Part shown: positions 47,255-55,310 of the stretch, piece by piece
How positions within the stretch are numbered: the stretch's first letter is position 1
How the letters are laid out: each line of letters starts with the position of its first letter
NCBI GenBank assembly: GCA_964016885.1
Contig: OZ024747.1
Location: forward strand, 21,514,001-21,578,000
Direction: 5' to 3'
Length of the DNA: 64,000 nt
Source: Eledone cirrhosa
Lineage: Eukaryota
Notes under the pieces: generated by a model
Database searches by the model: none
The model's input: the letters and a program-made list of their open reading frames with translations, nothing else
Told to the model about the DNA's origin: nothing
Position numbers and translations under genes: made by a program

Positions 47255-48751
47255 TGGGGATTCTTTTCTTTGTTTTTTGTGCCTCTCCTTTGTTCTGTCC
47301 TACGCCATCTTGTTTTTGTGTGTGACACACAATTATTATAGGGTGTTATAATAAACATCCGCTAAACTGATACGTACATATATATATATGTGTACCTGTA
47401 TGTATATATATATATATATATATATGCATGCTACTGTACGTCTGTATACATATATGTATGTACGTATACATACATACTTACATTTAAGTAAGTGCCGTAC
47501 TAAGAGTGAGAAATGAAATTTCGTTTCATTCTATTACAACTTATATATATATAAATATATATATATAATATATATAAATATATATATATAATATATATAA
47601 ATATATATATATATATAATATATATAAATATATATATATATAATATATATAAATATATATATATATATAAATATATATATATATATATATATAATATATA
47701 TAAATATATATATATATATATAAATATATATATATATATATAATATATATATATATATAATATATATATATATATAATATATATATATATATATATATAT
47801 ATATATAATATATATATATATATAGATATATATATATATAAATATATATATATGTAATATATATAAATATATATATATAATATATATAAATATATATATA
47901 TATAATATATATATATATATATAATATATATGAAAAACAAGGGGAAGAAGAATACTGCATGGTTGCACATGGATTACATATTATAAAATTAGTCCCTCAT
48001 CAGTGATTTTGCCAACCATCATTGGTATTTCATCGCATTAAAAATCAGATACCTCAGGTTGGTGCGAGCAATAACTAAAATAAGCTACTGGGACAAGTGA
48101 AACGCATAAAGCGAGTGAGACAAGTAAACAACAAAAGGAAAAGCAAACCGAAGGTTGGAAAACAGCAAGCCACATGGTAGTTATCCGATCAGCATAAGCT
48201 GGGTGAATTTCATGAGCGGTCAGAGAAGCAGACCGTACGCCGTAATATATATATATATATATATATATATATATATATATATATATATATATATATATAT
48301 ATATATATATATATATATAATATATATATATAATATATAATATATATATATATATAATATATATATATATATAATATATAATATATATATATATATAATA
48401 TATATATATATATATAATATATATATATATATAATATATAATATATATATATATATAATATATAATATATATATATAATATATATATATATATAATATAT
48501 AATATATAATATATATATATATAATATATAATATATATATATATAATATATATATATATATATATATATATATATATAATATATATATATATATATATAA
48601 TATATATATATATATATATATATATGTAGGAGGTGAGTTTTATTGTAGTACAATAAAGCAATGCAGATATCAGATAAGAAGCACTCTACAGTTTGTAGGA
48701 CTGGAGTATAAATAATATATAAGATCAAAAGATGGTTAAAAGAGTTCCATG

Positions 48752-48822
48752 TATTTTATTATGCGCATTTCAAAAACAAATATCATCATGCAATAACATT
48801 TGCGTTTTCGTCAGATAAAATA
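48752..48822 (-). ncRNA. Type I hammerhead, family F, minus strand
   Basis: TATTTTAT CTGACGA [stem II] GAAA T GCGC A TA / ATAAAATA; 8-bp stem I, palindromic loop III. Confidence 0.85.
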
Positions 48823-48948
48823 GGGAGACATGATATGAAGGTTAAAACACACTTGTGAATAGTGCAGTTTTAAATCAACATATCAGGATATGTTGATTTA
48901 AAACTGCACTATTCACAAGTGTGTTTTAACCTTCATATCACGTCTCCC

Positions 48949-49019
48949 TATTTTATCTGACGAAAATGCAAATGTTATTGCATGATGATATTTGTTTTTG
49001 AAATGTGCATAATAAAATA
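48949..49019 (+). ncRNA. Type I hammerhead, family F, plus strand
   Basis: TATTTTAT CTGACGA AAATGCAAATGTTA..TGATATTTGTTTTT GAAA T GTGC A TA / ATAAAATA. Confidence 0.8.
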
Positions 49020-49347
49020 CATGGAACTCTTTTAACAATCTTTGATCTTATATATTATATATATATATATATATAATATATAATATATATATATAATATA
49101 TAATATATATATATATATATATATATATATATATATATATATATATATATATAATATATAATATATATATATATATATATATATATATATATATATATAT
49201 ATAATATATAATATATATATATATAATATATAATATATATATATATATATATATAATATATAATATATATATATATATAATATATATATATATATGTATA
49301 TATATATATATATATATATATATATATATATATATATATATATATAA

Positions 49348-51115
49348 TACTGATGAATGTGGAGAACGAATGGGAGAGAGAGAAATTACCCTTAGTAGAT
49401 CCGACAGAGGGACCAGCTATTGAGATTGACGAATATAGGGTCCAAGAGGCGATTAGGGAAATGAAAAATGGTAAGGCTGCTGGACCATTGGGAATAGTTG
49501 CTGAGATGCTGAAGGCATCAGGGGACGTAGGCACCAAACTGGTTGCATGCATCATCAATCAGGCTATATATGGTGGTGTCATACCCAAAGACTGGTGCAG
49601 CAGTATTCTCATAAATTGCTACAAAGGTAAAGGGGATGCTCTGGAGAGGAGCAACTATAGGGGTATAAAACTGATGGATCAGGTTATGAAAGTGGCAGAA
49701 AGGATATTAGCACAACTAATTAGAGAAAGGGTCAAACTATATGAGATGCAGTTTGGTTTTGTACCTGGGAAGAGTACAACAGATGCCCTCTTCTTGGTGA
49801 GACAAATGCAAGAGAGGTTCTTAGAGAAAAATAAGCCACTATACTTAGCCTTTGTTGACCTAGAGAAGGCCTTTGATAGGGTACCCCGATCTGTCATCTG
49901 GTGATCCCTAAGGAAGCTAGGTGTTGAGGAATGGCTTGTGAGGACAGTGCAAACTTTGTGCAGAGGTACTGTCAGTAAAGTCAGGGTAGGAATGGAGTTC
50001 AGTGAGGAATTCCAGATACAAGTAGGAGTACATCAAGGTTCGGTCCTCAGCCTGCTCTTGTTCATTATAGTCCTCCAAGCCATTAAGAGGAGTTTAAGAC
50101 TGGCTGTCCATAGGAACTTCTCTATGCTGACGATCTGGTTCTTATAGCAGAATCAGTAGAGGCGCTAGAGAATAAGTTCTGGCTATGGAAACAGCAGTTG
50201 GAAGCAAGAGGACTGAGAGTGAACCTAGCTAAGACAAAAGTGTTGATGAGTAGAAAAGAGGACAAAACCCTGATTCTGTCAGGGAAATGGCCATGTTTGA
50301 TATGCAGAAAAGGAACTGGCATAAATTCTATAAAATGCACACAATGCAGATCCTGGGTACACAAGAGATGTAGCGGGATAGCAGGCAAACTAACAGGTAG
50401 GGAGAAATATGTATGCAGTAGATGTACAGGGAAATTAGACAGTAGAAGTCACATTGATAGACACATTTTTCAGATGCAGGAGGCGCTATAGAAGTGGTGG
50501 ATAGCTTCCGGTACCTAGGAGATCAGATTAGCATGGGAGGAGGGTGTTCCGAGGCCATAGTATCTAGAATAAGGACGGGTTGGAAGAAGTTTAGGGAGCT
50601 GCTTCCTCTGTTGACGAAGAAGGGTTTCTCCCTGCGTACGAAAGGCCTGTTGTATGATGCCTGTGTGAGGAGCGCGATGCTGCATGGTAGTGAGACATGG
50701 CAGCTACTGCAGAGGATATGCGACGGCTGGAGAGAAATGAGGCAAGCATGCTCCGTTGGATGTGCAGTGTATATGTGCTTGAACAACCCAGCATAAATGT
50801 GTTGAGAGAGAAACTGTGTCTGAGAGGGATAGAATGTAGTGTACGGGAGAGGAGACTGAGGTGGTATGGACATGTGATGCGCATGGAGGATGACCGATGG
50901 GTGAAGAAGTGCCAGGAAATGCCAGTTGAAGGAAGACGTGGTAGAGGTAGACCATGAAAAACATGGGCGGAGGTGGTGAGAACAGACCTCAGATCATTGA
51001 AGCTCACGGTGGAGATGATGAAGGACCGTGACGAGTGGAGAGATGCTGTGCTGAATAAGACCCGTCCCACCCTTGCAAGCAGGAAAAAGCGGACGTAAAA
51101 TGATGATGATGATGA
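49348..51115 (+). pseudogene. 5'-truncated RTE-clade LINE with disrupted reverse transcriptase ORF
   Basis: RT motifs NYRGIKL, QFGFVPGKSTTDA, AFVDLEKAFDRV, GVHQGSVLS, LYADDLVL (50119-50142), FRYLG; internal Cys-rich PHD-like stretch; stop at 49902 and frameshifts; (ATG)n tail. Confidence 0.95.
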
Positions 51116-54154: not shown

Positions 54155-54191
54155 CCGAATTGGTGTGGGAAAGACAGGTACATGAATTCGG

Positions 54192-54246
54192 ACTGCCTGA
54201 AGAGGTCACAGCCAATGATGGCTGTCACCGAAATATATATAGCAGT
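54192..54246 (+). ncRNA. Type I hammerhead, plus strand
   Basis: ACTGC CTGAAGA GGT C ACAGCCA ATGA TGGCTGT C ACC GAAA T ATAT A TA / GCAGT. Confidence 0.88.
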
Positions 54247-54341
54247 ATATCTATAATTTGTAATAAACGAAGCCAAATTTTACATATTTGACTTAATTAT
54301 TTTATATATATATATATATATATATATATATATATATATAT

Positions 54342-54881
54342 AAAATATTAAAAAAATAATGAATAAAACAATGAAACAGTTCCTTATATTAAACAAAAAA
54401 AGTTCATTATTTAACGATCGTTTCTAGGACATATATGTGTTAGAATTGGCATGCATATTCAACAGATCTATGTACAAAATTATACAAAATTATACAAACT
54501 ATCAAATAGAATATACATACCAACACATACATATGCCGTCTTCAGAAATAATGAAGACGGCATATGTATGTGTTGGTATGTATATTCTATTTGATAGTTT
54601 GTATAATTTTGTATAATTTTGTACATAGATCTGTTGAATATGCATGCCAATTCTAACACATATATGTCCTAGAAACGATCGTTAAATAATGAACTTTTTT
54701 TGTTTAATATAAGGAACTGTTTCATTGTTTTATTCATTATTTTTTTAATATTTTATCTTGACTCTGTTTTCCGTTTATCTTTCACCGAAAGTGATTTTTG
54801 AATGCATCTCTTCTTTCCATGATATCCGGATTACATTGAGTTCTTCATACGGATTGGACACTACCGTAAACTCTTGGTAGT
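54342..54881. mobile_element. Foldback Penelope-like end (~200 bp perfect arms 54342-54544 / 54552-54755, ~125 nt tail on the right)
   Basis: Inverted repeat read directly; TA flanks. Confidence 0.85.
54406..54552 (-). ncRNA. Type I hammerhead with ~115 nt stem II domain
   Basis: Minus strand ATTATTT CTGAAGA C GGCATATGTATGTGTTGG ... CTAACACATATATGTCC TA GAAAC GATC GTT / AAATAAT. Confidence 0.75.
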
Positions 54882-54911
54882 ATATATATATATATATATA
54901 TATATATATAT

Positions 54912-55310
54912 ATAAGATCAAAAGATGGTTAAAAGAGTTCCATGTATTTTATTATGCGTATTTCAAAAACAAATATCATCATGCAATAACATTTGTGTTT
55001 TCGTCAGATAAAATAGGAAGACATGATATGAAGGTTAAAATACACTTGTGAATAGTGCAGTTTTAAATCAACATATTCACAAGTGTATTTTAACCTTCAT
55101 ATCATGTCTTCCTATTTTATCTGACGAAAACACAAATGTTATTGCATGATGATATTTGTTTTTGAAATGCGCATAATAAAATACATGGAACTCTTTTAAC
55201 CATCTTTTGATCTTATATATTATTTATACTCCAGTCCTACAAACTGTAGAGTGATTCTTATCCGATATCTGCATTGCTTTATTGTACTACAATAAAACTC
55301 ACCTCCTACA
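54912..55310. mobile_element. Foldback Penelope-like end, family F copy 2, with hammerheads at 54945-55015(-) and 55113-55183(+)
   Basis: Highly similar to 48626-49058, reversed, with a different fold point. Confidence 0.85.

Follow-up and report, generated by a model that had tools for sequence, protein, structure and literature searches.

The 64-kb window, the whole stretch of DNA analyzed here, holds two hairpins with arms of unequal length, and the question is whether such structures descend from a master hairpin or are made anew at each insertion. The first-pass annotation favored the latter, proposing that each hairpin was formed from one template by priming at two fixed sites on opposite target strands.

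Anatomy of the two hairpins

As that annotation had it, the hairpins form one family in opposite orientation, at 48626-49058 (copy A) and ~54908-55309 (copy B), 90% alike over ~430 nt. They are the sole members of the family within the window; a second family inside it has the same layout with a 35-nt tail. Element positions are given on a t scale, with the tailed outer end at t1, the tail-less outer end at t84, and an inner hotspot at t260. The parts are as follows.

48300..48625, no strand: (TA)n-type run at the tailed end of A, target sequence, continuing further left
48626..48883, minus strand: tailed (T) arm of A, pLTR plus tail, sense on the minus strand, 5' end at t260; matches the full unit of L061 at its 3' end
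48626..48711, minus strand: tail of A, 86 nt, in one arm only; in tandem copies the 5' leader and the ORF come after the tail
48752..48822, minus strand: predicted hammerhead ribozyme motif in the T arm of A, with stem I UAUUUUAU/AUAAAAUA, CUGACGA, a 12-bp stem II, GAAA, and a short palindromic stem III
48884..48887, no strand: junction CAGG of A, in which each arm has a single non-reference G at its sense 5' end and AG lies in the middle
48888..49058, plus strand: tail-less (S) arm of A, pLTR from t260 to GATCT+TATATATTAT, with a second predicted hammerhead motif, core at 48957
49059..49330, no strand: (TA)n-type run flanking the tail-less end of A
54882..54907, no strand: (TA)n flanking the tail-less end of B
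54908..55076, minus strand: tail-less (S) arm of B, sense on the minus strand, extending to t260; (TA)n at 54908-54915 makes the outer edge indistinct
55074..55309, plus strand: tailed (T) arm of B, starting ~22 nt short of t260 with a TAT overlap; predicted hammerhead core at 55121, tail at ~55221-55309
55310..55346, no strand: (TA)n flanking the tailed end of B

The outer ends are common to both copies, as had been reported: the long arms end at ...CACCTCCTAC and the short arms at GATCT(TATATA) in the (TA)n run. The overhang of the long arm, previously put at ~87 nt, measured 86 nt in A and ~89 nt in B, and the copy-specific variants described as shared by the arms of a copy (GGGAGAC/GGAAGAC and AACACAC/AATACAC) were recovered together with a CG/TG difference. 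The proposal that the fold points differ held for the joints but not for the inner end point. In copy A, both arms reach the t260 site (CAACATAT), with CAGG between them (48884-48887); in copy B, the short arm ends exactly at t260 (55076) and the long arm ~22 nt earlier, with a 3-nt TAT overlap (55074-55076). Since both arms of A and the short arm of B end at t260, the copies share this point.

A Penelope-like element behind the hairpins

The hairpins belong to a Penelope-like retrotransposon (PLE) present in thousands of copies in the genome. Genome-wide family counts were made by exact patterns, and 26-mers from the two ends gave 7,234 and 10,770 exact matches, against 0 for reversed controls, far more than chance would give. 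Partial tandems that form pLTRs were found in L061, L062, L076, L095, and L170, and those of L061, L062, and L170 have the order pLTR-ORF-pLTR plus tail. The full unit spans 3.7 kb and includes an asparagine-rich stretch of ~75 amino acids and a 1.2-kb 3' region. The overhang of 86 to 90 nt is the known PLE "tail," and the layout by which PLEs are recognized, an inverted 5'-truncated copy with a one-sided tail, was found here and has already been published. Both window hairpins are real and are PLE ends, not a MITE and not a new element; they are best explained as the shortest head-to-head insertions of an endonuclease-bearing PLE.

The intact 798-amino-acid ORF of L170 contains the reverse transcriptase (RT) motifs FDIASYY, GASDS, and YRDDG, conserved across 27 homologues, and the top four PDB fold matches of its structure model (pLDDT 83.6) were telomerase RT (Foldseek, TERT, E 4e-8). 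At the motif level, a GIY-YIG endonuclease was recognized in the same ORF from a C-terminal LIYECKV...YFGST followed by R, H, E, and N positions, the homologues reading IVYKA...YIG at the GIY-YIG positions. No RT or GIY-YIG match came from a PDB sequence search or from Pfam, queried with the whole ORF, with pieces of it, and with five homologues; the RT and GIY-YIG identity rests on motifs and fold.

By its motifs, the arm ORF appears to belong with the Hydra clade of PLEs with a C-terminal endonuclease (EN+). L170 has DKT rather than DKG (SDKTN), a CxCX5C linker (CNCPVKNKC), and CxxC/CxH around E and N (CNLC...CLH); a CCHH is absent from L170, with only one C between the GIY and YIG positions. 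RWK is found in most of the 11 homologues shown and RWI in the L170 ORF. Insertion is targeted to (TA)n: 51 of 59 tail-less ends directly adjoin at least 4 TA units, as do most of the 40 tailed ends shown. The flanks are (TA)n on both sides, where a target-site duplication is unreadable.

A hammerhead motif is predicted in the pLTR, its core halves being found in 132 and 140 of 150 arms, with stems I and II folding. The fold z-score was only -1.06, an Rfam scan returned only sub-threshold microRNA-type hairpin matches and no hammerhead family, and arm ends showed no excess at the predicted ribozyme cut, t136 (4/183 at t134-138; 3/207 arms).

Ends, partners, and templates of the arms

In a positional sample of 141 arms, 68 outer ends fell at t1-5, 71 at t79-96 (60 of these at t84), and 2 further in, with none at t6-78; the samples favor young, exactly matching copies and the start of one contig (C1). 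The two fixed outer ends claimed from the window were thus seen among genomic copies as two clusters rather than a random spread. Close head-to-head pairs joined a tailed to a tail-less arm in 43 of 45 cases, two tail-less arms in 2, and two tailed arms in 0, an excess of mixed pairs over random pairing (p=3e-11).

The inner ends have a hotspot between TTTC and ATATG (t260), at which ~60% of the arms that reach it end: 67 of 120 arms did so, and genome-wide 11,320 arms reach t260 and 4,473 continue. Arms ending there often carry an extra G, and both window copies have an arm that ends at this site. The next cDNA base at t260 is C in 2,143 cases and T in 578, and in the local sample C made up 19 of 48 non-G bases at t260 versus 14 of 67 elsewhere (p=0.04). 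Judged from these sequences, t260 is likely the start of a capped RNA, and we infer that the extra G of CAGG is a copied RNA cap. This cap reading is suggestive, because 1,520 of the 2,143 C cases read CA, which may stem from the partner's CATATG or from slippage, and many of the 623 others have the C within the junction overlap. The palindrome at the hotspot could also favor joining by itself. Separately, contigs of four runs (X1, X4, X5, and X6), which cannot show RNA starts, had much greater depth over the pLTR and tail than over the ORF start, and in three runs loose TA ends at the tail end.

The inner ends had been expected to be free, with one fixed fold point taken as the mark of a MITE. 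A hotspot does exist, yet it does not mean a MITE, because joints vary between copies and longer arms run into the ORF. Origin from a master hairpin as a nonautonomous MITE or foldback DNA transposon, as short palindromes in TA sites with one common inner end might suggest, is hardly credible given that, in addition, the two ends differ (t1 versus t84) and the ORF entered by the arms encodes RT and endonuclease; a MITE or master hairpin is refuted. The earlier statement that the hairpins were not copied from a master MITE thus stands.

Among 70 close pairs, the tail-less arm extends further in by >10 nt in 36, the type to which copy B belongs, and the tailed arm further in in 5; the remaining 29 are symmetric, 18 at the hotspot and 11 elsewhere. 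The arms do not overlap in 7 of the 70, and at 8 of 30 further loci a full tail-less arm is joined to a mere piece of tail. In the 36, the tail-less arm holds sequence absent from the tailed arm, and the tailed arm holds the tail, so that neither can be the template of the other. These pairs bear on fold-back or self-priming, in which a palindrome lets one cDNA or antisense RNA fold on itself and serve as its own template, the tail being left by endonuclease resolution. Published passages propose both steps, antisense-RNA fold-back (PMC3846280) and a tail left when the endonuclease resolves an intermediate (PMC8557442); the shared variants would be accounted for directly, and the 29 symmetric pairs, many of them centered on natural palindromes (CATATG, ATGCGCAT), fit it equally well. 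However, fold-back cannot make pairs with a longer tail-less arm or without overlap, and an extra jump back to the RNA would be needed in over half of events. As the sole route it is refuted, and as the general explanation we consider it unlikely.

The arms of one insertion resemble each other closely. Arm-versus-arm mismatches were 4/166 in A and 1/140 in B, and between-copy mismatches were 5/235 for the long arms, 8/161 for the short arms, and 4/162 and 7/143 for the crossed comparisons, a weak contrast with only two copies in the window. Across 69 pairs, diagnostic sites agreed at 615 of 632 (2.7% discordant versus 37.6% when shuffled), and in 17 pairs with a longer tail-less arm at 132 of 133. 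The tail type matched the partner's subfamily in 10 of 11 readable pairs with short or no overlap, by our own reading, and both arms stopped or both continued at t260 in 30 of 31 pairs. Rare variants were found in both arms in 36 cases versus one arm in 157; the 36 may go back to the source copy or to conversion between the arms. The proposed single template per insertion therefore holds in nearly all pairs. Arms of different subfamilies in L111 (5/11 sites), and perhaps in L079 and L049, indicate that two RNAs or later conversion do occur.

Twin priming on two separate RNAs from the same source locus or transcript class, one per RT, would account, with no need of strand displacement, for arms overlapping by as much as 176 nt, and both the L111 arms and a predicted dimer are compatible with it. 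The agreement in stopping or continuing at t260, the 11 pairs ending together off the hotspot, and the 36:5 bias toward the inner-primed arm all fit one shared RNA better, and the strict pairing of tailed with tail-less arms would need an extra rule; two RNAs are therefore improbable as the usual course. Two separate insertions at one spot, later homogenized by gene conversion between arms, are less probable still, to the point of being very unlikely. A PLE endonuclease is able to cut its own pLTR region and single arms exist (38/139), but the 43 of 45 mixed pairs would go unexplained, tail and pLTR types are linked even where arms without overlap make conversion impossible, and neighbor pairs within 8 kb among 100 matches included only 1 in minus-then-plus order against 31 head-to-head.

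A probable two-start route and its published counterparts

In many copies the arms have an anatomy that one fold-back cannot give, so that the two cut ends of the target were likely both used to copy one and the same RNA, each from its own fixed start. Twin priming, in which both ends of a cut (TA)n prime on one RNA, at the tail end and ~85 nt upstream, is probably how the hairpins arose. The geometry invoked by the first-pass annotation was borne out, and priming on opposite strands is what that geometry suggests. Under this model, the pLTR promoter likely starts a capped RNA at t260, and the element protein, possibly a dimer, would nick both strands of the TA repeat. Each 3' end would prime on the RNA with the help of short AU matches, UAUAUA for the inner site and AU for the outer one. 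The inner-primed copy would in most cases extend as far as the 5' end of the RNA, at times with the cap copied as one additional base; the outer-primed copy would follow it, displace it, or stall. The cDNA ends would anneal through overlaps of 1 to 9 nt or small inserts, each completing the other's second strand. Priming in the first pLTR and tail of the RNA would give arms of at most 260 nt, and priming in the downstream pLTR and tail long, ORF-containing arms.

That twin priming is the programmed, normal route of PLE integration, with one capped RNA, two hard-wired starts, and one staggered cut, has a somewhat better than even chance. Because 38 of 139 arms in the positional sample were without a detected partner, several running straight into (TA)n, either twin priming is not obligatory or partners have been lost. 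For an RNA motif or hairpin common to the stretches downstream of the two starts there was no support: the likeness was loose, its score was reached by 199-513 of 2000 shuffles, and other element windows did as well. A literature search, with subscription journals and bioRxiv preprint supplements outside its coverage, found no paper stating two-start twin priming for PLEs.

The origin of inverted pLTRs and tails is called open in passages of PMC8557442 and in PMC11167929. With thousands of young copies available, fold-back can be told from two primings by counting, and the two start sites seen in vitro can be assigned to the paired arms of a single insertion. If the model is true, PLEs solve second-strand synthesis differently from LINEs; a single route would account for the inversion of the pLTR, for a tail at only one end, and for the very many tiny hairpins, and the inner ends of these would map where transcription of the element starts in the germ line, without RNA data. 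In annotation, hairpins of this kind belong with PLE ends rather than with MITEs or microRNA precursors.

Passages of PMC8557442, PMC3846280, and PMC2377424 describe for PLEs partial tandems forming pLTRs, an inverted 5'-truncated copy, a tail, and a hammerhead in the pLTR, and PMC2377424 places the promoter in the pLTR. The family here shares with the EN+ insertion unit so described the pLTR tandems, the inverted 5'-truncated copy on the 5' side, the tail at one end, and the hammerhead motif, but its tail is 86 to 90 nt rather than 30 to 40 nt. For the inversion those passages invoke self-priming on an antisense template, and for the tail, resolution by the endonuclease, whereas the pair anatomy here argues for two primings. 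With the Hydra clade (e.g., Hydra-1_Obim and Penelope-13_HM), as characterized in part of PMC8557442, it shares DKT, CxCX5C, the lack of CCHH between GIY and YIG, CxxC/CxH, the RW(K) motif, a hammerhead, and the (TA)n target. It differs in its 3.7-kb unit, against "generally <3 kb," in RWI in place of RWK, and in a hammerhead unlike that listed there for Hydra-1_Obim; the placement is by motifs.

In L1, as the relevant passages of PMC12016303 report, twin priming is a minority event (18-22%), with poly(A) as the first site, variable internal second sites, and overlaps of ~12 nt. In L1, and probably here, each target strand primes one cDNA, and the two, opposite in orientation, become joined end to end. 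Here, unlike in L1, both sites are fixed, with no poly(A) and with t84 taking 60 of 73 non-tail ends; roughly three of every four arms have a partner, and arms can overlap by 176 nt or more. The process thus works like twin priming without being an L1 inversion. An untemplated 5' G has been tied to cap copying in L1 (PMC9341517).

A further counterpart is the Poseidon PLE of Anolis studied in vitro (PMC11167929), in which two RT starts bound the tail, both target strands are nicked and extended, and a dimer is predicted; the AT-rich target and an RT start internal to the RNA are also shared. Poseidon belongs to a different clade and has its tail inside the ORF, whereas the tail here ends ~85 nt before the start codon, and no connection between the two start sites and the paired arms of a single inverted insertion is drawn in that paper. 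On the best reading of our analysis, two-site twin priming matches this published in vitro work.

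Anatomy and identity of the two hairpins

Copies A and B belong to one family, a Penelope-like element (PLE), lie in opposite orientations, are about 90% alike and are both set in (TA)n. Positions (t) were measured as distance from the tail end, the tail being the overhang of one arm of each hairpin.

Copy A, tailed arm: 48626-48883, inward end at t260
Copy A, tail-less arm: 48888-49058, inward end at t260
Copy B, tail-less arm: reaches t260 at 55076
Copy B, tailed arm: starts about 22 nt short of t260, joined through a TAT overlap

Sequence comparison of A and B bore out the first-pass annotation regarding the single family, the opposite orientations and the outer ends common to both copies, and copy-specific variants were shared by both arms of each copy as it had described. 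Its claim that the hairpin centers differ held solely through the shorter arm in B, with t260 reached in both copies. In copy A, both arms reach CAACATAT (t260) and are separated by CAGG. In the proposed divergence comparison, the contrast between arm mismatches within copies (4/166 in A and 1/140 in B) and those between copies (4 to 8 in 143 to 235) was weak, with two copies compared.

Exact genomic matches to 26-mers of the two family ends numbered 7,234 and 10,770 (own genome, 3.0 Gb). Longer copies extend into a 3' region and an open reading frame (ORF), and three loci (L061, L062, and L170) are partial tandems of the form pseudo-LTR (pLTR) plus tail, ORF, pLTR plus tail, with a unit of 3.7 kb. 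In L170, a reading frame of 798 aa is intact. Its protein has 37 relatives at 28 to 41% identity, only one of them named; Pfam and PDB sequence searches returned no match, and the best fold match of a structure model (28 aligned sequences, pLDDT 83.6) was telomerase reverse transcriptase (RT). An asparagine-rich, low-confidence insert at residues ∼579 to 653, which separates the RT thumb region from the zinc-finger linker, recalls the N-rich inserts of rotifer Penelopes (PMC3846280). The ORF and insertions carry DKT, CxCX5C, CxxC...CxH, no CCHH and a (TA)n target, and by these motifs and target, as described for that clade, the family appears to fit the Hydra clade. A hammerhead motif was predicted in the pLTR of 132 to 140 of 150 arms, and arm-end counts gave no pile-up at the predicted ribozyme cut. 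The family is almost certainly a PLE, and the arm overhang is the PLE tail. Directly after the TA run holding copy A lies a decayed non-LTR reverse transcriptase frame (49331-50500), which appears RTE-like by its motifs.

Arm ends, pairing and templates

Three samples, all skewed to young copies, were used: S2, the first 100 exact matches of the pLTR-end 26-mer on contig C1, in which arms ending within the pattern are under-sampled; S1, the best 40 tail matches, copy A among them, in which short tailed arms cannot appear; and S0, 34 matches to the whole long arm, which has a long-arm bias and served only for variants and junction bases. The counts exclude BLAST pieces of <28 nt, matches to the reference TA stretch and any end past t140.

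When the outer ends were plotted on the consensus, as the annotation had suggested, the 141 S2 arms formed two clusters, with 68 at t1-5 (a few of these tailed ends being internal tandem junctions), 71 at t79-96 (60 at t84) and none at t6-78. The tail-less end shifts by a few bases, within TATATATTAT. The outward side of both fixed ends is (TA)n, as expected if each end is a priming junction. Among 45 close head-to-head S2 pairs, 43 joined a tailed to a tail-less arm, two were tail-less twice and none was tailed twice; six more with wide gaps were all mixed, as were 27 of 28 S1 pairs. A partner was undetected for 38/139 S2 arms, some being broken by other repeats or by the edge of the sampled interval and some entering (TA)n directly. 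Three loci (L137, L146, and L150) hold multiple two-armed insertions within a few kilobases; two in L137 are nearly identical, through either local duplication or repeated targeting.

Of 70 close mixed pairs, 36 had a tail-less arm reaching >10 nt further inward than its partner, and 5 had a tailed arm doing so. The symmetric pairs (18 at the hotspot, 11 elsewhere), often at natural palindromes, fit fold-back and the annealing of two separate cDNA ends equally well. The arms did not overlap in 7 of the 70, and the joints showed overlap (33), blunt ends (5) or extra bases (32). A complete tail-less arm was joined to a mere tail piece in 8/30 further loci. In pairs whose tail-less arm has sequence absent from the tailed arm, while the tailed arm has the tail, fold-back cannot have made either arm from the other, and a longer template is needed for both; copy B is one such pair. 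Long insertions at L062, L063, L065, and L131 have additional inverted or deleted internal pieces between the arms, which suggests template jumps preceding joining.

At 11 subfamily-diagnostic columns, the arms agreed at 615/632 sites (69 pairs), compared with 37.6% discordance after shuffling, and at 132/133 in 17 pairs with a longer tail-less arm. Tail type matched the partner's subfamily in 10/11 readable pairs with little or no overlap (our reading, from two tail columns), and stopping or continuing at t260 was the same in both arms of 30/31 pairs (first 100 genomic matches, t241-260). Discordance at L111 (5/11 diagnostic sites), L079 (3) and L049 (2) would reflect either the use of two templates during a single event or conversion afterwards.

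Of 120 arms reaching t256, 67 ended in t256-265, and other 10-nt bins held 0 to 10. Genome-wide, 11,320 arms reached t260 and 4,473 passed it, with point mutation accounting for part of the shortfall. The sense sequence is TTTC/ATATG (slash at t260), a putative initiator-like sequence. After t260, the cDNA continued with C in 2,143 arms and with T in 578, and copy A has an extra C on both arms. An untemplated G in L1 is linked to cap copying (PMC9341517), and the Penelope promoter is located in the pLTR (PMC2377424). That t260 is the start of a capped RNA has, on sequence grounds, a slightly better than even chance. Against it, 1,520 of the 2,143 C cases read CA, for which the partner or slippage is a possible source; many of the remaining cases sit within joint overlaps; upstream pLTRs of tandem copies start at varied points (t201-1137); and the hotspot sequence is itself palindromic.

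Other hairpins and repeats in the window

55971-56407: second-family hairpin, 35-nt tail, same plan as the main family
54039-54307, 56512-56613, 56691-56910, and 43422-43707: further hairpins, one arm ending in (TA)n, the other continuing
55873-55915, 56642-56684, and 57593-57635: 43-nt repeat, inverted arrangement around the hairpin cluster at 55.9-56.9 kb

The second family has 3,697 exact genomic matches to its 25-mer. Among the matches listed, at four pieces per locus, its tailed end was fixed, the partner started at t36 in at least 14/30 loci, inner ends clustered at t235-242, and the tail-less arm was longer in 4 pairs and the tailed arm in 2. It is likely another PLE, judging from one nearby frame (L225). 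The four further hairpins are likely ends of other PLE families; in that at 54039-54307, each strand carries a hammerhead-type core. In the 55.9-56.9 kb cluster, the same TA runs hold nested or grouped hairpins from several families. A near-perfect 293-nt palindrome (54402-54694), which lacks TA flanks and any hammerhead core, has sub-threshold microRNA-family matches at its center. Long tandem repeats, simple or of short period and strongly strand-skewed, occupy 3100-6000, 10600-11200, 28000-34000, and 13431-13850.

Mechanism and comparison with known systems

The annotation had proposed that each hairpin was made at insertion by twin-priming-like synthesis from two fixed sites rather than copied from a master MITE. 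The outer-end, pairing, inner-end and template counts fit the twin priming of a single RNA at two fixed start points, which is the probable mechanism. An inner-primed copy would run ahead of the outer-primed one on the same RNA, and the 36:5 bias to the inner-primed arm would then be expected. A hairpin common to the flanks of both start sites failed a shuffle test in this family.

The element represents a new family within a known kind. Its layout, in which a 5'-truncated copy lies inverted and only one end bears a tail, is already published (PMC8557442, PMC3846280, and PMC2377424). Both hairpins are real and ordinary in kind, yet informative on an open mechanism. Earlier proposals were self-priming on an antisense template for PLE inversion (PMC3846280) and endonuclease resolution (PMC8557442). 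A literature search, with subscription journals mostly outside its coverage, found no paper on twin priming in PLEs. With an Anolis PLE in vitro, both strands were nicked and extended, reverse transcription began at two tail-bounding sites, and a dimer was predicted (PMC11167929); that study leaves the two sites unconnected to the two arms of an inverted insertion, a connection that we draw here. The geometry resembles that of L1 twin priming, which is in contrast an occasional event whose second sites vary and whose overlaps are short (PMC12016303).
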